From Patescibacteria group bacterium (GTDB lineage: Bacteria; Patescibacteriota; Minisyncoccia; Phycocordibacterales; 21-14-all-36-13): DNA of 40,131 nt. Below, one piece after another: positions 1,496 to 27,756 of the stretch. Under the pieces are notes generated by a model. That model made no database searches, was not told the DNA's origin, and saw only the letters and a list, made by a program, of their open reading frames with translations. The stretch spans positions 1 to 40,131 of the forward strand of contig JBBTPZ010000014.1 in assembly GCA_038065915.1 (NCBI GenBank), written 5' to 3'. How positions within the stretch are numbered: the stretch's first letter is position 1; each line of letters begins with the position of its first letter. The position numbers and the translations under genes are program-made.

Positions 1496-2386
1496 ATGGA
1501 TATTTTATTTAGTGTATCTATAATCGCGTCATTTGTGGCTGGCATGGTAGCTTTGTTTGCTCCGTGTTGTGTGAGCATTCTTCTCCCAACATACCTGGCG
1601 GCTGTATTTAGAGAAAAAACAAAAGTTCTAAAGATGACTTTCATATATTTTTTGGGAATGGCAATCATTCTTATACCGATAGGATTGGGAGCGGCTTTTA
1701 TTACCAAATTTTTTCAAGATATTCATATTGAACTTTATATTTTGGGCGGGTTGATGATGGTTGCATTTGGAATAATGAGTTTTGCAGGCAAAGGCATGGC
1801 AATGTTGCCAAAATCACTTCAACCAAAAGCTGGCGGTTTTTCTAAAAAATCAGTGTTTATGTTAGGTGTTTTTTCAGGTGCGGCGACATCCTGTTGTGCT
1901 CCAGTTCTTGCTGGTGCCTTAACCCTAGCAGTTCTAAGCGGAACATTTGTAAAAGCGATAATTGTCGTATTTGCTTATGTCTTTGGAATGACAATACCTT
2001 TGTTTGTTATAGCTACATTCTGGGATAAATTTGACATACAAAATTCTCGTCTGGTTCGCGGAAAACTTTTTAAATTTAAATTTGGCAAAAAAATATTTTA
2101 TATTCATTCAACGAATCTAATAGCAGGAATTATTTTTTCAGTCATTGGATTAATGTTAATAACACTTGCTCTTTCAGGAAATACATTTTGGGCACCATCG
2201 GCCCAAGTAAGTTTTGGAGAATCTCTGACAAGATTTTCTACTAAAATAGTAAATGCTCTACAAATAATTCCGGATTACATATGGGGAGTGATTATTGTCG
2301 CTATTTTTGCATTTTTGTTAAGGTTTAGTTTTAATAATTTTAATAGAAATAATAAAAAACAAGAAAATGAAAATACTCAACACTAA
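1496..2386 (+). CDS. CcdA/DsbD-family thiol-disulfide transmembrane protein (cytochrome c biogenesis-type TM domain)
   Basis: Polytopic membrane protein with FAPCCVSILLPTYL and TSCCAPVLAG motifs in TM helices. Paralog of 5955..6842. Confidence 0.7.
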   Translation: MDILFSVSIIASFVAGMVALFAPCCVSILLPTYLAAVFREKTKVLKMTFIYFLGMAIILIPIGLGAAFITKFFQDIHIELYILGGLMMVAFGIMSFAGKGMAMLPKSLQPKAGGFSKKSVFMLGVFSGAATSCCAPVLAGALTLAVLSGTFVKAIIVVFAYVFGMTIPLFVIATFWDKFDIQNSRLVRGKLFKFKFGKKIFYIHSTNLIAGIIFSVIGLMLITLALSGNTFWAPSAQVSFGESLTRFSTKIVNALQIIPDYIWGVIIVAIFAFLLRFSFNNFNRNNKKQENENTQH

Positions 2387-3266
2387 AAATAAAGCGAGAT
2401 TGGCAATCTTTGCCGTTGTGCTATTTATTTTTTTTCTCGTTTCCTATTTTGACTTTGATGTAAAAATAAAAACGAGGACAGAATCTAATGTGGAAAAATT
2501 AACTCAATCTGATTATTTGCAAAAAGAAGTTTTGCCAGAAAATGGTGTGGAATTACCGGTTGTTTGGGGCGATATTGGAAAAAAGTTAACGGATTCAGGA
2601 GTGATAGATTCTAAAAAATTTGAAGGCCTCTACAACAAAAGAGGCGGGTTGGATGACGAAGAAAAATCTCTTCTGTATGCAGAAAATAACGGAAAAATTA
2701 TAATTACAAAAGAAAACTCTGGTTTCATACTGAATATTTTTTGGGCGCTTGGCCTATCCAACAAAAATTCTGTTTTAGAAAAAGGACCAATGATGAATCC
2801 TGAATATGGCGGAGCGGAGAATTTTGCTTCCACAGGCGGGTGGACAATTGCCAATGGAAATATTATGAATCATTATAGCGCGCATTCTTTTGTTGTACTC
2901 ACAAAAGAACAACAGGAACTTGTAGAAAGAGTATCCAAAAATATTTATCGTCCGTGTTGTGGAAATTCAACTTACTTTCCCGACTGCAACCACGGAATGG
3001 CGATGCTCGGACTTCTGGAATTGATGGCGTCTCAAGGCGTGAGTGAACAGGATATGTATAAAATAGCTCTTCAGGTTAATTCGTTTTGGTTTCCCGGTAC
3101 ATATTTAACAATAGCTAAATATTTTGGAATGAGAAATGTAGAATGGAAAGATATTAATCCAAAAGAAGTGTTGGGAGAAATTTATTCAAGCGGTCAAGGA
3201 TACAAACGAATTCTTCAAGAATTAGAACCGGAAAAAATTCAAGGTGGTGGAGGATGCTCCGCTTAA
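2367..3266 (+). CDS. Membrane-anchored extracytoplasmic Cys/His-motif protein (RPCCGNSTYFPDCNHGMAM), paralog A; function unknown, putative metal/thiol chemistry
   Basis: N-terminal TM helix and a conserved C-terminal domain shared with 3314..4300. Ends in GGGGCSA. I cannot name the family. Confidence 0.75.
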   Translation: MKILNTKNKARLAIFAVVLFIFFLVSYFDFDVKIKTRTESNVEKLTQSDYLQKEVLPENGVELPVVWGDIGKKLTDSGVIDSKKFEGLYNKRGGLDDEEKSLLYAENNGKIIITKENSGFILNIFWALGLSNKNSVLEKGPMMNPEYGGAENFASTGGWTIANGNIMNHYSAHSFVVLTKEQQELVERVSKNIYRPCCGNSTYFPDCNHGMAMLGLLELMASQGVSEQDMYKIALQVNSFWFPGTYLTIAKYFGMRNVEWKDINPKEVLGEIYSSGQGYKRILQELEPEKIQGGGGCSA

Positions 3267-3313: not shown

Positions 3314-4300
3314 ATGACGATAGATGACCAAAACAACGAAGATTTTTCCAACAAGAAAGTATCATCGCAAACTAACGTTACGGACAAGCGTAATTTTGCG
3401 CTTTCTGTGAGTATTGTTATTACTGCTCTAATTTTAGGGTTTGCGTGGATTTATACTGTAAAGCTCAAAATATCATTGCAAGCCAAGAATCAAATAGAAA
3501 CGGAAACACAATTGTCAGTTGAAGAAGCAATTGAATTGCCTTTGCGTTGGGATAATCTCGGAGTGCAAATGATTGATGCAGGCGTAATTAATCAAGAAGC
3601 ATTTGAGTCAATTTATGCACAGCGCGGAGGTTTGGACTCTCAAGAAAAACAACTTCTTCTTGGCAAATCCAACGGCACTATAAAAATTAATCAACAAAAT
3701 GCCGGCTTTTTTCTAAATTTTCTTTGGGCATTTGGGCTAAGCAACAAAAATTCAATTCTTGAAAATGGCCCCATGATGGACCCACAATATGGCGGAACGG
3801 AGAATTTTGCTTCCACAGGCGGGTGGACAATTGCCAATGGAAATATTATGAATCATTATAGCGCGCATTCTTTTGTTGTACTCACAAAAGAACAACAGGA
3901 ACTTGTAGAAAGAGTATCCAAAAATATTTATCGTCCGTGTTGTGGAAATTCAACTTACTTTCCCGACTGCAATCACGGAATGGCGATGCTCGGACTTTTG
4001 GAACTTTTAGCCGCACAGGGAATTGATGAACAAACTATTTACAAAGTAGCGCTTGAAGTAAATAAACTTTGGTTTCCCGAACAATACAATGTCATTACGC
4101 AATATTTATTGAATAACAATAAAAATATTGAAAATATTAATCCTAGAGAGATTTTGGGAATAAATTATTCCAGCGCTTCGGGGTATGGTCGAATTTTACA
4201 ATCCGTCGGCCCCCAACCTTCAAAAGATAGTGTTAATTGTAGTATCGGGGGAGAAAGCACGGCTCCAGCTCAATCAAGTGGCAGTGGTTGCGGAATTTAA
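3314..4300 (+). CDS. Membrane-anchored extracytoplasmic Cys/His-motif protein, paralog B
   Basis: Same architecture and motif as 2367..3266. Cys-containing tail (VNCSIGG...SGSGCGI). Confidence 0.75.
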   Translation: MTIDDQNNEDFSNKKVSSQTNVTDKRNFALSVSIVITALILGFAWIYTVKLKISLQAKNQIETETQLSVEEAIELPLRWDNLGVQMIDAGVINQEAFESIYAQRGGLDSQEKQLLLGKSNGTIKINQQNAGFFLNFLWAFGLSNKNSILENGPMMDPQYGGTENFASTGGWTIANGNIMNHYSAHSFVVLTKEQQELVERVSKNIYRPCCGNSTYFPDCNHGMAMLGLLELLAAQGIDEQTIYKVALEVNKLWFPEQYNVITQYLLNNNKNIENINPREILGINYSSASGYGRILQSVGPQPSKDSVNCSIGGESTAPAQSSGSGCGI

Positions 4301-5671: not shown

Positions 5672-5760
5672 ATGAACCCCGTTAAAAATTTAGTAAATTA
5701 ACTTAACAGGGTTATATAAATAAATTTATTATGACTACACAAATTTCTAACGGGGTGAAT
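5672..5760 (+). repeat. uORF/inverted-repeat element, copy 1
   Basis: The arms 5676-5689 (accccgttaaaaat) and 5743-5756 (atttctaacggggt) pair over 14 bp with 1 mismatch. The uORF at 5672-5701 encodes MNPVKNLVN. A GTG at 5755-5757 lies in the 3' arm. Confidence 0.7.
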
Positions 5761-5955
5761 CAAAATTTAGGGAAATTAGATAGAATTTTTAGATTTGTCT
5801 TGGGAATATTATGGCTTAGTCCGATGGCGCCACAATTTGGCACAGAGTGGGCCAACATAATTATCGTTATCGTGGCGTTGATCGCACTTCTTGAGAGTTT
5901 TCTTGGTTGGTGTTGGCTTCATCGTTTGTTTGGCATAGATAATAATAATCAGTAA
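5731..5955 (+). CDS. DUF2892 (YgaP-like) small membrane protein
   Basis: The NLGKLDRIFRFVLGIL...LESFLGWCWLHRLFGI pattern is typical of DUF2892. The true start may be the GTG at 5755 rather than the ATG at 5731. The stop overlaps the next ATG (TAATG). Confidence 0.65.
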   Translation: MTTQISNGVNQNLGKLDRIFRFVLGILWLSPMAPQFGTEWANIIIVIVALIALLESFLGWCWLHRLFGIDNNNQ

Positions 5956-6842
5956 TGGAATTACTTTTAAGCGCATCATTAATCGCGGCATTCATTGCCG
6001 GAATTGCGGCGCTCTTTGCCCCGTGTTGTATCACTGTTCTTTTGCCCGCCTATTTCGGTTCCATATTTCGTGAAAGATACAAAGTGTTTTTAATGACTTT
6101 TATATTTTTCTTGGGAATTCTTACAGTATTTCTTCCCATTGGTCTTGGAGTCGCCGCGCTAGGGAAATTATTCAGCCAATATCATAATATTATTTTCGGC
6201 ATAGGAAGCACATTTCTTACTATTCTTGGAATTTTTCTTCTCACCGGTATTCATTTTTCTTTACCAATGAGAGTAAGCCCTGCCCTCAAGAAACACAATG
6301 CTGTTTCTGTATTTGTGCTTGGTATATTTTCAGGAATTGCCACTACTTGTTGCGCACCAGTGCTAGCTGGTGTCTTGGCTCTCGCAACTCTTCCGAGCTC
6401 AATATTTTGGGGTGGTTTTTATACTTTAAGTTTTGTTCTTGGAATGGTCGCGCCACTCTTTATTATATCTCTTTTCCTTGACAAGATTAACTTTGAACAA
6501 AAATTTCTACGAATCTTCAGTAGACCGATTCGATACCGATTAATCGGCAAAGAAATAAGTATTACCGTTTCCGAAGCAGTATAGGGCATTACTTTTCTTG
6601 CCATGGGCGTTTTGATTTTTTATCTTGCGCTTACTAATCGGCTTTTTATGCAAGCCGGAGGATATCAGACAGATATTAATATTTATCTCACAAAAGTTTT
6701 GCAATCAATAAGCGGTGTTGTGCAAGCGGTTCCCGAATATGTCTGGGCGCTTTTGTTAGTTATAATTATTAGCGGAATTGTTTGGCGGGTTGCTCGTCAA
6801 TTCAACAAAGAAAAACAAGAAGAAAAAATAACAAAAAGTTGA
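5955..6842 (+). pseudogene. Second CcdA-like gene interrupted by a single in-frame TAG (fragments 5955..6584 and 6603..6842)
   Basis: The two track ORFs are in the same frame. Together they align end to end with the 296-aa paralog 1496..2386 (FAPCCITVLLPAYF, TTCCAPVLAG, ...IPDYIWG/VPEYVWA). The TAG at 6582-6584 replaces one codon. Confidence 0.6.
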
Positions 6843-6872
6843 TAATTATTAATAATTTTATAAAATAAAATC

Positions 6873-6960
6873 ATGAACCCCGTTAGAAATCTAATAAATT
6901 AATTTGACGGGACGCATAATCTAATAAATTTATGAATACACAAATTTCTAACGGGATGAA
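6873..6960 (+). repeat. uORF/inverted-repeat element, copy 2
   Basis: The arms 6879-6890 (cccgttagaaat) and 6944-6955 (atttctaacggg) form 12 perfect bp. The uORF at 6873-6902 encodes MNPVRNLIN. An ATG at 6956 follows the 3' arm immediately. Confidence 0.7.
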
Positions 6961-7585
6961 AAAAATAAATGTCTCTACAATTATTATAACAATAGTTGTT
7001 GTCGTCATAATAGGTCTTCTGATTTGGAATGACAGTAAGAATAAAATTAGTACGCCAGTAGCGGATGAACATGGAATGCCTATTGTTACAAACACTCCCG
7101 TTATACCACTTGATGAACTGATTAATAAACCTACACCGGATTTTGCTTTAGCCGACAGAGATGGGAAAATATATTCCTCGAACGAATTGCAAGGCAAGAA
7201 TGTGATACTCTTTTTTAATGAAGGATTGATGTGTTATCCCGCATGTTGGAATCAAATTGTTTCACTTTCTCAAGATGAGCGTTTAAAAAATGACAACACC
7301 GTGGTCCTTTCAGTTGTGATTGATTCCAAAGAAGATTGGCAACAAGCGATTAATAAGATGCCTGAACTTGCCAAAGCGACAGTAGTTTTTGATAAAGATG
7401 CAGAAGTATCTAAAAAATTCAACATGCTTAAAACTTCATCCTCAATGCATTACGGTTCACTTCCGGGTCATACTTATGTAATAATTGATAAAGAAGGAAT
7501 GGTCAGACATGTTTTTGATGACCCTAATATGAGCATTCACAATGACCAATTAGTTGCAGAAATTTCAAAATTTTCCAAAAAATAA
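6932..7585 (+). CDS. Membrane-anchored thioredoxin-fold (AhpC/TSA-redoxin-like) protein with a CYPAC motif
   Basis: TM helix, then PDFALADRDGKIYSSNELQGKNVILFFNEGLMCYPACW. The likely real start is the ATG at 6956 (MKKINVST...). Confidence 0.7.
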   Translation: MNTQISNGMKKINVSTIIITIVVVVIIGLLIWNDSKNKISTPVADEHGMPIVTNTPVIPLDELINKPTPDFALADRDGKIYSSNELQGKNVILFFNEGLMCYPACWNQIVSLSQDERLKNDNTVVLSVVIDSKEDWQQAINKMPELAKATVVFDKDAEVSKKFNMLKTSSSMHYGSLPGHTYVIIDKEGMVRHVFDDPNMSIHNDQLVAEISKFSKK

Positions 7586-7737
7586 TACTGATGGCAATAT
7601 ATTGTAAAAGCCATATCAGTGTTAAATAAAAAAGGTCGAAGAATAAAAATTTAATTCCAAAGGGGAATTTACCCCGCGTGATAAAAACTCTCGGATTTTA
7701 TGATATCTAAAACATCATATTTCACGAGATAAAAATT

Positions 7738-8034
7738 ATGAATAATGAAAAACATTATTGTCAAATAAATAAAAATGGTTTTGCATTAGCGGCTGGAGGA
7801 GCAATGGGAACCATTTATATTGTTTGTGCTGTATTTGTGTCTTTGTGGCCAGATTTTTCACTAAAACTTTTTGGTTGGCTTGTTCATTTAGTGAATGTAG
7901 AAAAATTTACCGGTGGTTTGGTGATGACGTTCGGCGGATTTTTGATAGGTTTGGCGCAAGTTGTTATTTATGCTTATATCGGAGCATGGATTATTGCTTG
8001 GTTTCACAACAAATTCTGCAAATCAAATCAATAA
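7738..8034 (+). CDS. Small integral membrane protein, unknown function
   Basis: 98 aa with 2-3 hydrophobic helices. The overlapping track ORF 7824..8054 is in another frame and Cys/Arg-rich, so it is rejected. Confidence 0.55.
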   Translation: MNNEKHYCQINKNGFALAAGGAMGTIYIVCAVFVSLWPDFSLKLFGWLVHLVNVEKFTGGLVMTFGGFLIGLAQVVIYAYIGAWIIAWFHNKFCKSNQ

Positions 8035-8056
8035 AAATTAATAAACAGATATAAAT

Positions 8057-8755
8057 ATGCAATATGCTTGGCTTATTTGGGGTCTTATACTTTTGGTTGT
8101 ATGGACCACTGTCTATCTTTCTTTGGAAAGTAGAGAAAGCAAAAAAAGGATGTTAATAGTCAGTATTTGGACTTCACTTCTTGGCTTGACCGAACCTTTG
8201 TTTGTTCCCGAATATTGGAGTCCACCCTCGCTCTTTGATTTAGCTTCAAAAACAGGATTTGACATAGAAAGTTTAATTTTTGCCTTTGGTATAGGAGGAA
8301 TTGTTGTTATTTTATACGAGCGCATCTTTCGCGCAGAGCATGAAAAAATTTCAACATTGAGTCAACACTCTTCTCGCCATCGGTATCATCTCTTGGCAAT
8401 TTTATCTGCGCCGATTGTATTTCTTTTACTTATGTTAACGACACAACTTAATCCAATTTATATATCTGTTATTGCTCTTGTCTTCGGAGGATTTGCAACC
8501 TGGTATTGTCGGCCTGACCTCAAGAAAAAAATGATTGTGAGTGCTTTTATTTTTCTTGTTATCTATTTCGTCTACTTTTTAACTCTGATTGTCTTTTATC
8601 CGGGATATGTTGAACAAGTTTGGCGACTTGATGTCATCTCTGGAATTCTAATTGTAGGCATACCGCTGGAAGAACTTCTGTTTGCTATTAGTTTTGGTTT
8701 TTTTTGGTCTAGCATATATGAACATCTGACTTGGCGTAAAATTAAAAATCTTTAA
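8057..8755 (+). CDS. Polytopic membrane protein, possibly lycopene-cyclase-domain family
   Basis: 232 aa with about 7 TM helices. Two PxE(E/Y) motifs (TEPLFVPEYW, GIPLEELLF) resemble CrtYc/d-type domains. Assignment is from memory only. Confidence 0.4.
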   Translation: MQYAWLIWGLILLVVWTTVYLSLESRESKKRMLIVSIWTSLLGLTEPLFVPEYWSPPSLFDLASKTGFDIESLIFAFGIGGIVVILYERIFRAEHEKISTLSQHSSRHRYHLLAILSAPIVFLLLMLTTQLNPIYISVIALVFGGFATWYCRPDLKKKMIVSAFIFLVIYFVYFLTLIVFYPGYVEQVWRLDVISGILIVGIPLEELLFAISFGFFWSSIYEHLTWRKIKNL

Positions 8756-8757
8756 AT

Positions 8758-8950
8758 ATGAACCCCGTTAGAAATCACACAGTTAATAAAATCATGGGAA
8801 AAAGCAGAGTGTTATATATTAAAAGGTCATTATTTATTAAAAAATTATGGATTGAAAAGTCCAAAAAAGGATTAAAAACTAGCACAACTCTTTAAAATCT
8901 CATTTAGAGATTTTAAAGTTAGGACTTTTCAATTTCTAACGGTGTGAAAA
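8758..8950 (+). repeat. uORF/inverted-repeat element, copy 3 (expanded)
   Basis: The arms 8765-8775 and 8932-8942 form 11 perfect bp. The uORF starts MNPVRN but runs 45 codons (8758-8895). An extra internal hairpin is ctttaaaatctc/gagattttaaag. The cfa GTG at 8944 abuts the 3' arm. Confidence 0.65.
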
Positions 8951-14421: not shown

Positions 14422-14485
14422 AAAAATAGGGAGTTGTCTGGTGGTAGACAACGACTATATTTTTCTTAACCCCGCCCTTTTATTT

Positions 14486-14713
14486 ATGTATTATGTGTAT
14501 GTTATAAAAAGAAATAATAAATTTTATTTTGGTTTCTCGAAAGATTTAAAGAGAAGATTTAAACAGCATGCAAAAAATTATTCTTGCGAAATGGTGTATT
14601 ATGAAGCTTACGCGACAGAAAAGTTAGCGCGTAATAGGGAAATAAAATTAAAAGAATATGATGGAGCTTGGCGCTCATTACGAAAACGTTTAAATATAAA
14701 AAGGGCGGGGTGA
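14486..14713 (+). CDS. Small GIY-YIG nuclease-family protein (UPF0213-like)
   Basis: MYYVYVIKRNNKFYFGFSKDLKRRFKQH...ARNREIKLK matches the GIY-YIG pattern. The ATG at 14486 is preferred over the GTG at 14441. Confidence 0.75.
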   Translation: MYYVYVIKRNNKFYFGFSKDLKRRFKQHAKNYSCEMVYYEAYATEKLARNREIKLKEYDGAWRSLRKRLNIKRAG

Positions 14714-25052: not shown

Positions 25053-26150
25053 ATGAGTTTATCAATCGCAATTGTGGGCTTGCCCAATGTAGGAAAAAGC
25101 ACACTATTTAATGCGCTGACGAAAAAGTCTGTTCCGGCGGAGAATTATCCTTTCTGCACAATTGACCAATCCGTGGGGATTGTTCCTGTGCCAGACGAAC
25201 GAGTTGAGATATTAAATAAATTTTCAAATTCAAAAAAGAAAATTCCAGCCGTTGTGGAATTTGTTGATATTGCAGGTCTTGTAAAAGGAGCATCGGAGGG
25301 TGAAGGGCTTGGAAATCAATTTTTAGCAAACATAAGGGAAACGGATGCAATTGCAGAAGTTGTGAGAATATTCGAGGATAAAAACATAACGCACGTTCAT
25401 AATGAAATAGATCCGCTCAAAGATATTGAAATAATAAATTTGGAATTGATAATGTCGGATTTTCAAGTCGTTTCAAAAAGAATAAATACTATTGCAAAAG
25501 ATGTTAAAAAGGGAGACAAGAAAGCAATTTTTGAAGAGAGGGTTTTCAAAAAAGCGTATAAAATTTTGAATGAAGGAAAACTCGCATCAACGCTGGAATT
25601 AGAAAAAGAAGAGAAAGAAGTTTTAAAAAGTTTAAATCTTCTAACATCAAAAAAAATAATATACGTTTTAAATAAAAAAAGCGGTTGCAAAGATGTGTGT
25701 GAAATAAAAGACGAGAGATATAAAAAGTTGATGAAATTTTTTAAAGATACTTGTTCGGAGTTTGTTATTGTTGATGCTGGGATTGAAAATGAATTGAAGG
25801 ATTTAAGTGTTGAAGATGCAAAAGAATTTAGAAAGGAATTAAATGTTTTTGATGATGGAACGAATGAGCTTATAAAAAAGGGTTATTTAGCTTTGGATTT
25901 GATAACATTTTTGACAACAGGCGAAGATGAAACAAGAGCGTGGACGATTAAAAGAAATTCAAGCGCTCCAGAAGCCGGGATGGCTATCCATACTGATTTT
26001 AAAGAAAAATTTATTCGCGCGGAAATTATAAATTGGAAGGACTTGGTTGATGCTGGTTCTCATTCAAATGCGAAAGCAAAGGGTTTGGTTAGAACGGAGG
26101 GGAAGGGATATATCATAAAAGACGGAGACGTTGTGGAATTCAAGATTTGA
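25053..26150 (+). CDS. ychF: Ribosome-binding ATPase YchF (Obg-like GTPase family)
   Basis: IAIVGLPNVGKSTLFNALT, FVDIAGLVKGASEGEGLGNQFL and the C-terminal TGS-like GYIIKDGDVVEFK. Confidence 0.95.
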   Translation: MSLSIAIVGLPNVGKSTLFNALTKKSVPAENYPFCTIDQSVGIVPVPDERVEILNKFSNSKKKIPAVVEFVDIAGLVKGASEGEGLGNQFLANIRETDAIAEVVRIFEDKNITHVHNEIDPLKDIEIINLELIMSDFQVVSKRINTIAKDVKKGDKKAIFEERVFKKAYKILNEGKLASTLELEKEEKEVLKSLNLLTSKKIIYVLNKKSGCKDVCEIKDERYKKLMKFFKDTCSEFVIVDAGIENELKDLSVEDAKEFRKELNVFDDGTNELIKKGYLALDLITFLTTGEDETRAWTIKRNSSAPEAGMAIHTDFKEKFIRAEIINWKDLVDAGSHSNAKAKGLVRTEGKGYIIKDGDVVEFKI

Positions 26151-26162
26151 ATCGCAGATGAA

Positions 26163-26236
26163 CCCCGAAGAAAAGCAAGCTTCCTACGGGGCAGGCGCAG
26201 ATAAAAACCCGCAGATGTTCGCAGATAAAAAACAAG
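26163..26236 (+). repeat. Intergenic solo arm of the GCAGAT array, with a nested GC hairpin
   Basis: cgcagat occurs at 26163, 26206, 26220 and 26230. The spacing would be 10/14/10 if the 33-nt gaaccccgaag...cttcctacggggcagg insert after the first unit were removed. Confidence 0.75.
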
Positions 26237-26278: not shown

Positions 26279-26318
26279 AAACCACTTTCTAATTCGCGCG
26301 AATTAGAAAGTGGTTTTT
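26279..26318 (+). terminator. Rho-independent terminator of ychF
   Basis: aaaccactttctaattcgc/gcgaattagaaagtggttt is a perfect stem followed by a T-run. Confidence 0.85.
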
Positions 26319-26346
26319 AAGATAAATAAAGAATGTCTACAATTTT

Positions 26347-26406
26347 AAACTTCCAGCGGTGAAACCGCTGGAAGTTTCCACATCTACGCTATAGCGTAGA
26401 TGTGGA
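26347..26406 (+). other. Two abutting perfect 13-bp hairpins
   Basis: aaacttccagcgg tgaaa ccgctggaagttt (26347-26377) and tccacatctacgc tata gcgtagatgtgga (26377-26406). Confidence 0.6.
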
Positions 26407-26510
26407 AATATGTTTTATTTTTTGTCAAAATTAGTTTTTTAATTATTTTTTTGTTTTCGTGGTTTTATGTCCTCGTGGTTTTATGTCTTTTCTGCTACAA
26501 TATAAATATT

Positions 26511-27586: not shown

Positions 27587-27756
27587 AATTTTACCTATCG
27601 CGTTTTTGATCTCTCTCCAATTAAGAACCGGGAGATGTTCGGCTCTTTTTATCTTGAAATGAACTCCCGTTAGGGTAATCTATAATTTATCATGTTTTTT
27701 TTAAAATACAAACCATATGATTTTTAAAAACATTTTGATAATGTATAATTACAAGA

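Follow-up and report, generated by a model that had tools for sequence, protein, structure and literature searches.

MITE-like insertions in the start codons of three Patescibacteria genes and their full-length relatives carrying a small GIY-YIG nuclease gene

We analyzed a contig of 40,131 nucleotides from a Patescibacteria group bacterium (JBBTPZ010000014.1, assembly GCA_038065915.1; hereafter, the window), in which three similar inverted-repeat elements are located at the starts of three genes. These elements are non-autonomous copies, resembling MITEs (miniature inverted-repeat transposable elements), of a mobile family similar to insertion sequences (ISs) that is characterized by a 13-bp terminal inverted repeat and a 4-bp target duplication. 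In each case, the host gene began with ATGAA, and the element was inserted into the TGAA of this sequence. The three repeats are selfish insertions and not a purpose-built regulatory switch. Full-length members of the same family carry one gene, which encodes a single-domain GIY-YIG nuclease of 84–97 aa. We estimate the probability of this explanation as a whole, i.e., MITE-like insertions in start codons together with a full-length form carrying a GIY-YIG nuclease gene, to be roughly 0.8.

The three ORF-less (ORF, open reading frame) elements of the window are all on the plus strand and share the 13-bp terminal inverted repeat CCCCGTTAGAAAT / ATTTCTAACGGGG. Copy 1 (5672–5760, both flanking TGAA included) is located at the start of a YgaP-like/DUF2892 gene, copy 2 (6873–6961) at the start of an AhpC/TSA-redoxin gene, and copy 3 (8758–8949), with an interior of 156 nt, at the start of a cyclopropane-fatty-acid (CFA)-synthase-like gene. 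In copy 1, the 5′ repeat CCCCGTTAAAAAT (5677–5689) has one mismatch to the consensus and the 3′ repeat is ATTTCTAACGGGG (5743–5755); the left TGAA duplication (5673–5676) forms the host's original ATG together with A5672, and the right one is at 5756–5759. The repeats of copy 2 are at 6878–6890 and 6944–6956 and its TGAA duplications at 6874–6877 and 6957–6960, and those of copy 3 are at 8763–8775 and 8932–8944 and at 8759–8762 and 8945–8948, respectively. All three copies have one mismatch per arm pair (12 of 13 positions matched) and about 81–184 bp between the duplications, and they open with ATGAACCCCGTTA(A/G)AAAT and close with ATTTCTAACGG(G/T)(G/A)TGAA. When at most three mismatches were allowed, the 18-mer ATGAACCCCGTTARAAAT matched the window four times (0.14 expected), and ATTTCTAACGG with at most one mismatch matched eight times (1.0 expected). 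Copies 1 and 2 were 85–89% identical over the entire 89 nt, and the interior of copy 1 was 96% identical in an orthologous filled locus (L203). The interior of copy 3 is unrelated to those of copies 1 and 2 and had no counterpart among the fetched loci; copy 3 was considered as a decayed nuclease gene, and this was rejected, as BLASTP similarity stops after MNPVRN.

In the start codons GTG 5755, ATG 6956, and GTG 8944, the first letter is the last base of the 3′ repeat, and the TG belongs to the adjacent TGAA. The ATG upstream, with which the host gene originally started, now heads a relic ORF, which consists of MNPV[KR]N followed by junk. The reading frames indicated that the host ORFs start only at codons supplied by the element, namely ATG 5731, ATG 6932, and GTG 8944. 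The in-frame ATGs of copies 1 (5731–5733) and 2 (6932) are located eight codons upstream and add the N-terminal extensions MTTQISNG and MNTQISNG, respectively, and GTG 8944 is the sole in-frame start of copy 3, which has no in-frame ATG upstream. The first-pass annotation, made from the letters of the window, had given the positions of all six arms, the contact of the three start codons with the 3′ arm, and the two element-encoded N-termini, and these were confirmed. It had also described upstream ORFs (uORFs) of nine codons. The peptides MNPVKNLVN (5672–5701, copy 1) and MNPVRNLIN (6873–6902, copy 2) and the three differences between them were correct, but the length of nine codons was not general, as the upstream ATG of copy 3 opens an ORF of 45 codons (8758–8895).

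Two further features of copy 3 were observed. Its interior contains a 12-bp perfect palindrome at 8890–8918 (CTTTAAAATCTC-ATTTA-GAGATTTTAAAG), which may be a second small element nested in copy 3. In addition, independent short-read assemblies of the same population (Logan contigs L141–L143) stop inside copy 3, which occupies their first 39–51 nt; these ends are 51 nt before the CFA-synthase gene and are an expected effect of a multi-copy repeat.

Evidence for insertion was obtained from the flanks of the copies. Because the first scan had fixed ATGAA, metagenomes were scanned again with both arms fixed and the flanks open, which yielded 123 copies. Identical 4-bp direct repeats flanked the 13-bp repeats in 84 of the 123, compared with 9.8 in a control in which the left and right flanks were taken from different copies (cross-pairing). 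With a 12- or 13-bp repeat, no other duplication length fitted comparably. A 14-bp repeat with a 2-bp duplication gave a numerical fit of 94/123 and was ruled out by duplications such as CTCA and TGAG. Read on the plus strand, the perfect duplications comprised 22 different tetranucleotides, including TGAA, TAAA, TCAA, TAGA, TGAG, TGGA, TGTA, CTCA, CTCG, CAGG, CCAG, and GCCG, with a preference for T..A. Since the flanking 4-bp repeats vary between copies, we concluded that they are target-site duplications.

Comparison with orthologous loci lacking the element revealed the site of copy 2 in its empty state. The syntenic locus L285 (AAATAAAATCATGAAAAAAATAAAT.TTCTACAAT) has the window flanks joined with one TGAA, the DNA ...AAATAAAATCATGAAAAAAATAAATATTTCTACAAT consisting of the left flank of the window, a single TGAA, and the right flank. 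The same ATGAA as in copy 2 is occupied, in the ortholog L284, by an element that belongs to a different subfamily and has an interior of ~105 nt. Among the 120 closest homologues of the 217-aa redoxin encoded behind copy 2, 118 begin with M(N)KKINVST and lack ISNG; the 209-aa redoxin form without the element was not on record by exact-protein look-up. Tandem copies with one common TGAA (L003, L012, and L071) and nested copies (L087, L182, L286, and L077) were also found. In L286 (~880–930) and L077 (~1200–1250), the new copy is located within the 3′ repeat of the older one (junction ATTTCTAA/CCCCGTTAGAAAT...). The nesting of copies within the 3′ terminal repeat indicates that the repeat itself holds a usable target. 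The duplications, the empty site, the recurrent insertion, the tandem and nested copies, and the coding full-length form support one of the two readings offered by the first-pass annotation, namely a MITE that donates start codons.

The family is widely distributed. By exact match with ATGAA fixed, the 18-mer was present at at least 119 loci in species-representative genomes (one genome per species), and the same termini were found at more than 240 fetched loci of Patescibacteria and at least six other phyla. Among the 80 listed record titles, most were of Patescibacteria and about a quarter were metagenome-assembled genomes (MAGs) labelled as other phyla; the labels were Omnitrophota, Planctomycetota, Thermodesulfobacteriota/Deltaproteobacteria, Nitrospirota, Elusimicrobia, Ignavibacteria, and Gammaproteobacteria. 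A sequence like the 3′ arm ATTTCTAACGG (at most two mismatches) followed within ~300 nt downstream in 114 of the 119 listed loci, and it was exactly ATTTCTAACGGGGTGAA in 72 of the 113 paired copies. The interiors are free in sequence, GC content, and length, the arm spacing ranging from 3 to 277 nt. They included subfamilies with an extended stem (CGCGRACGC...GCGTYCGCG), a ~105-nt type, and a TCCAG...GGGGCATT type. In viral contigs, the two-arm pattern was found at three loci only. Variants of the arms (GAAAT, GAGAAA, GAGATA, and CACG/CGTG) change jointly in both arms, and the 13th repeat pair covaries, being C:G in 87 and T:A in 23 of 123 copies. In the full-length copy L288 (601–882), CACG...CGTG replaces CCCG...CGGG in both repeats, a compensatory double change. 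The occurrence of identical 13-bp ends in several phyla is a sign of gene flow among bacteria of groundwater and sediment, and GIY-YIG genes were listed as exported from Patescibacteria in a Hainich study (PMC12455944).

About a third of the copies lie precisely in ATGAA start codons. In the first set, an ORF of 60 codons or more shared the frame of the GTG at the 3′ end in 92 of 113 copies (0 and 4 in the other frames), and 64 of the 113 contained an in-frame interior ATG (14 and 8 in the control frames); 61 of these 64 ATGs were located 2–10 codons before ATT TCT AAC GGG GTG. In the flank-free set, copies with the TGAA duplication were nearly always preceded by A, and 24 of 30 were at the start of a long ORF in that frame, compared with 16% of random positions and 4/30 in the opposite orientation. 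Copies with TGAG and TGGA duplications showed the same start-site behaviour, and those with TAAA were mostly elsewhere, some of them directly before a Shine-Dalgarno site. As the TGAA copies are placed in frame at ORF starts, the GTG start is composed of the last G of the repeat and the TG of the duplicated (A)TGAA. In the window, ATGAA opens 8 of 33 genes, one being the element-supplied ATG 6932; with about a quarter of the genes beginning in this way, insertion targets abound. Type IV pilin-like host genes with a GFTLIE motif were observed behind the element at P0248, P0254, P0264, L023, and L050, and some database proteins are in-frame fusions of nuclease and pilin.

We then turned to the full-length form. 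In the proteins of the full-length copies (L097, L123, L264, L274, L288, and L292), PF01541 was the only domain. In L097, the 5′ arm begins a 97-aa GIY-YIG ORF (PF01541, E = 1e-14), which ends one base before the 3′ arm; L012 is a truncated intermediate. The ORF sits between the same ends as those of the window copies in L097, L264, and L292, and a nuclease gene with a repeat on both sides was found at L097, L123, L129, L264, L274, L288, L292, and 14441–14713 of the window. The repeats are part of the gene: the first nuclease codons lie in the 5′ repeat (ATG AAC CCC GTT AGA AAT, encoding MNPVRN), and the last codons and the stop often lie in the 3′ repeat in another frame (..CTA ACG GGG TGA, encoding LTG-stop). 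Among 120 nuclease homologues, 48 begin with M-x-[PH]-V-[RK] (mostly MNPVR) and 59 end with L[TM][GE] (mostly LTG). In L123, L264, and L274, the nuclease ORF is bounded by matching repeats and TGAA, and the nuclease stop and the host start overlap by 4 nt (GTGA or ATGA). The end of L292 reads TAA-t-ATG GAA GAA AAC AAT AAA ATT TCT AAC GGG GTG AAA, and its module, i.e., an ATG, a few codons, and ISNGV, also occurs in short copies. The nuclease family comprised 854 clusters at 50% identity (E <= 1e-10), and its nearest solved structures in a PDB search were the UPF0213 proteins 1zg2 and 1ywl. The hits of a tblastn search of plasmids were limited to distant GIY-YIG genes of a generic kind. In 1.69 Mb of fetched DNA, GIY-YIG genes were the only cargo found between repeat pairs; candidates for other cargo, in which repeats with matching duplications were 0.2–4 kb apart, proved to be GIY-YIG copies or had been paired falsely across short elements next to each other.

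The window also has a resident small GIY-YIG gene (14441–14713, plus strand), located between pheS and pheT. It carries a variant inverted repeat (ACCCCGCCCTTTT, 14469–14481, and AAAAGGGCGGGGT, 14699–14711, plus strand), and its TGA stop directly follows the repeat (GGGG-TGA). This repeat has only the ACCCCG/CGGGGT ends in common with the reported element, the protein appears shortened compared with its homologues, and no matching 4-bp duplication was found at 14441–14713.

We propose the following model for the full-length form. Translation of the nuclease would begin at the initiation site of the host gene, and the host ORF would be re-initiated by stop-start coupling, either through the GTGA/ATGA overlap or through TAA-n-ATG followed by the ISNGV codons. 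Such coupling would let start-codon insertions survive. The GIY-YIG protein would recognise the paired repeats, probably as a single-stranded DNA hairpin in the manner of Ssn nucleases, and may drive or trigger mobility. We tentatively suggest, at somewhat short of even odds, that the family is a previously unrecognised autonomous transposon whose sole protein is the GIY-YIG nuclease of ~90 aa, without a DDE, HUH, serine, or tyrosine recombinase. Such a transposon would combine the 4-bp duplication with fixed polarity, a preference for ATGAA, host-initiated expression, and a stop-restart module, and it may have spread with near-invariant 13-bp ends in Patescibacteria and several other subsurface phyla.

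Several points weigh against our interpretation. Inverted repeats of 13 bp combined with a 4-bp duplication are what DDE transposases classically leave behind. GIY-YIG enzymes are hydrolytic nucleases, for which we know of no strand-transfer chemistry; the route from a hydrolytic nuclease to insertions with duplications is unexplained, and the role of these nucleases in transposition or cleavage is putative. Each full-length nuclease that was looked up occupied one fixed locus across samples, and no recent jumps of full-length copies were seen. A perfect duplication was absent from 39 of the 123 copies, and at least one full-length copy (L129), which is intergenic, has none. The polarity of the interior is nearly fixed relative to the asymmetric target (42 vs 4 and 11/12), which is unusual for elements with symmetric ends and is unexplained. 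Every effect on translation was deduced from the sequence. Finally, certain non-Patescibacteria matches could be mis-binned contigs, although in several of these copies the GC-rich interior and the Shine-Dalgarno sites are as is typical of their phyla, contrary to mis-binning.

Some of these points would suit ordinary MITEs mobilised in trans by an unlinked DDE-type transposase, the GIY-YIG gene being a passenger or a selfish hitch-hiker. DDE insertion sequences typically have such 13-bp inverted repeats and 4-bp duplications, with a target biased toward T..A, no joining activity of GIY-YIG nucleases is known to us, and the full-length GIY-YIG copies seem fixed at single loci. However, no transposase-sized ORF was found between matching repeat pairs in the 1.69 Mb around more than 240 copies. 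Moreover, the repeats encode the N- and C-termini of the nuclease across many subfamilies and the repeat variants track the nuclease clades, which argues for long-term linkage, and the insertion polarity is fixed, unlike that of symmetric DDE elements. We therefore regard mobilisation by a DDE-type transposase as unlikely.

The repeats might alternatively be host-domesticated marks for a single-stranded DNA nuclease of the Ssn type that are not actively mobile. The architecture is Ssn-like, with a GIY-YIG gene flanked by a dispersed repeat and nuclease and repeat variants that co-vary (PMC11893778), and the three copies of the window lie close together, in a metal/redox island of 3.3 kb. On the other hand, the variable duplications, the empty site, and the tandem and nested insertions are traces of insertion events. 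The SRM consensus of the Ssn system, HGTCWYN(0-2)YYVSBRHN(0-5)WNVSBRGN(0-2)RNCYNB, had no match on either strand of the whole window and of four element regions, nor within 400 bp of five full-length copies. Immobile marks of this kind are very improbable, and domestication may have followed the spread of the repeats.

The other reading of the first-pass annotation was a leader-peptide or translation-coupled switch, i.e., a cis-regulatory RNA in which translation of a conserved leader peptide opens the long-range stem and unmasks the downstream start. Several observations agree with such a switch. The long-range stem is present in the minimum-free-energy RNA fold (z about −3), the 5′ ATG is a genuine former start site, and stop-start overlaps occur in the full-length copies. 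The 5′ arm also has a local alternative partner: the pairing proposed for copy 1 was found, as TTAACAGGG (5703–5711, plus strand) forms a subterminal hairpin with the 5′ repeat, and it is general, since a TAACGGGG-like partner (at most one mismatch) was present, in a fixed polarity, in 42 of 139 gene-start copies (1.3 in shuffles), mostly 0–22 nt past the 5′ arm (35/42). A Shine-Dalgarno motif was weakly enriched upstream of the 5′ ATG (17% vs 9%), and this was not used as evidence. The window, which derives from contigs of Hainich groundwater, has a GC content of 33%, A/T-rich leaders, and a Shine-Dalgarno-like motif at 3 of 33 genes. In such a Shine-Dalgarno-less host, a stem of 12–13 bp could mask the GTG, and this masking could be countered by the TAACGGGG-like local partner and by ribosomes that occupy the relic uORF. 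RNA effects may thus exist as a by-product.

As the identity of the element, however, the switch is largely refuted, given the empty site and the duplications. Conservation of the uORF is limited to its six repeat-encoded codons (MNPV[RK]N), which counts against a switch; the uORF length varies between 6 and more than 30 codons, and in 25 of 113 cases the uORF reads through into the gene. The downstream genes are functionally unrelated (DUF2892, redoxin, CFA synthase, pilin-like, TspO, spermine-synthase-like, and PEP-utilising enzymes), and their orthologues function without the element. The same repeat pair also occurs away from start codons with other duplications, and the arm mismatches are uncompensated and without G-U enrichment. 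Rfam 15 gave no match at the gathering score in the window and none on the elements at E <= 1. The switch is accordingly a most improbable account of the element, and the coupling idea survives in another form, in that the nuclease ORF of the full-length copies is placed on the host ATG, with its stop overlapping or preceding the restart codon. The reading of the arms as paired operator sites flanking promoters for a regulator of the metal island, e.g., the CsoR-like repressor at 724–993, may be set aside because of the distribution: although the copies lie in an island of CsoR, CcdA, redoxin, and P-type ATPase genes and the arms contain C4 and G4 tracts, identical arms precede unrelated genes in many phyla, the arm spacing is 3–277 nt, promoter-like sites were not enriched (20 vs 14 ± 4), and no terminator-like sites were found in the same scan. 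Integron attC sites (RYYYAAC 5′, GTTRRRY 3′) were likewise rejected as a candidate, since the order in the element is reversed (GTTAGAA 5′ and TTCTAAC 3′) and 4-bp duplications are not a feature of attC.

Two degenerate half-copies that had been noted in the first reading were also found on the plus strand of the window. One is a mini-copy or mini-hairpin ATGAACCCCGAAGAAAAGCAAGCTTCCTACGGGGC (ATGAACCCCGAAG...CTACGGGGC) at 26160–26193, just past the stop of the gene at 25053–26150; the other is a lone degenerate 5′ arm ATGAACTCCCGTTAGGGTAAT at 27659–27679, upstream of leuS and without a 3′ partner. Three near-perfect hairpins in a row (ACCACTTTCTAATTCGCGCGAATTAGAAAGTGGT, CTTCCAGCGGTGAAACCGCTGGAAG, and CCACATCTACGCTATAGCGTAGATGTGG) were observed at 26283–26410, between the gene at 25053–26150 and ATG 26400, and the last of them, CCACATCTACGCTATAGCGTAGATGTGG, includes this start codon. 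The CcdA/DsbD-like gene at 5955–6842 is split by a single in-frame TAG (6582–6584). This codon aligns with Ala/Ser in the intact 291-aa orthologues (L284 and L285), the sequence beyond it is still highly conserved, and the same split was called in two long Hainich contigs (L139 and L140). The TAG is either a very recent nonsense mutation or a read-through or recoded stop. The paralogous adjacent genes at 2367–3266 and 3314–4300 share ~100 near-identical residues in their C-terminal halves (ENFASTGGWTIANGNIMNHYSAHSFVVLTKEQQELVERVSKNIYRPCCGNSTYFPDCNHGMAMLGLLEL), a pattern that points to recent duplication or gene conversion.

Placement inside the start codon, combined with a restart codon, would let a parasite draw on the expression signals of a host gene and yet keep that gene alive; here it occurs in organisms that lack Shine-Dalgarno sites. 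The family also matters for annotation. Gene callers add false M-x-ISNGV... extensions or choose GTG starts derived from the repeat, relic uORFs are called as genes, the nuclease is fused to host proteins, and assemblies break in the repeat. If the nuclease itself is responsible for mobility, a new transposition chemistry would be implied. As a source of tools, the family contains numerous natural combinations of a small nuclease with the sequence that it presumably recognises.

In our literature search, the arm sequences appeared in no paper found, and a search combining GIY-YIG, start codon, MITE, and Patescibacteria gave no description of the element. Parts of its design are nevertheless known from other systems. 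Like MITEs and their parent ISs (e.g., the Correia elements of Neisseria and the IS5 group with 4-bp duplications), the element is short and non-coding and has terminal inverted repeats, a target-site duplication, and many copies; co-transcription, folding in mRNA, and expression signals for neighbouring genes are likewise possible. It differs from them in that its only full-length relative carries a GIY-YIG nuclease and not a DDE transposase, and also in its identical termini across phyla, its fixed polarity, and its nesting in ATGAA with a built-in restart codon. REP/REPIN sequences and RAYTs are similar in having dispersed hairpin doublets and a small nuclease-type gene flanked by repeats, but RAYTs are HUH/Y1 enzymes, and REPINs are extragenic, lineage-specific, and without target duplications. 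Rickettsia palindromic elements (RPEs) are also palindromic mobile repeats that are tolerated in reading frames and add peptide segments. Unlike the present element, they insert at internal positions of genes, and we know of no start-codon nesting, restart module, or defined 4-bp duplication among them.

Free-standing GIY-YIG homing endonucleases, such as phage T4 Seg and I-TevI, are comparable as selfish nuclease genes located between or within host genes, but these enzymes have a separate DNA-binding domain and one cognate site, and they lack terminal repeats, duplications, and ORF-less derivatives. Leader-peptide attenuators and uORF switches likewise have a short ORF upstream that overlaps one of the strands of a stem, the other strand of which covers the main start; in the present element, by contrast, conservation of the peptide ends with the repeat, the genes form no common regulon, and orthologues are polymorphic for the insertion.

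Among described systems, the closest is that of the Ssn nucleases, with hairpin repeats termed NTS/SRM (Chenal et al. 2025, Nat Commun; PMC11893778). The NTS repeats of Neisseria limit the integration of transforming DNA around particular genes, and the Ssn enzymes act on a single-stranded DNA hairpin; the authors noted an IS-like layout of the genes (PMC11893778). The two systems share a single-domain GIY-YIG gene of ~90 aa with an inverted repeat on both sides, the dispersal of the repeat in many copies, and the association of nuclease and repeat variants. As for a link between the present nuclease and SsnA, the PDB search gave only UPF0213 proteins, and NCBIfam and PHROGs gave nothing specific. 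SRM/NTS units are compact hairpins of 20–50 nt with an oriented conserved flank (HGTCWY...), whereas the present element has a split 13-bp repeat pair, a variable interior, and 4-bp target duplications, its repeats encode protein termini, and its copies are placed within start codons. The account of the Ssn system does not mention duplications, empty sites, a start-codon position, translation, or Patescibacteria (PMC11893778). The link to insertion sequences was raised there as a resemblance only; the variable duplications and the empty site described here are direct sequence evidence for the transposition-type insertion of repeats that frame Ssn-like GIY-YIG genes.

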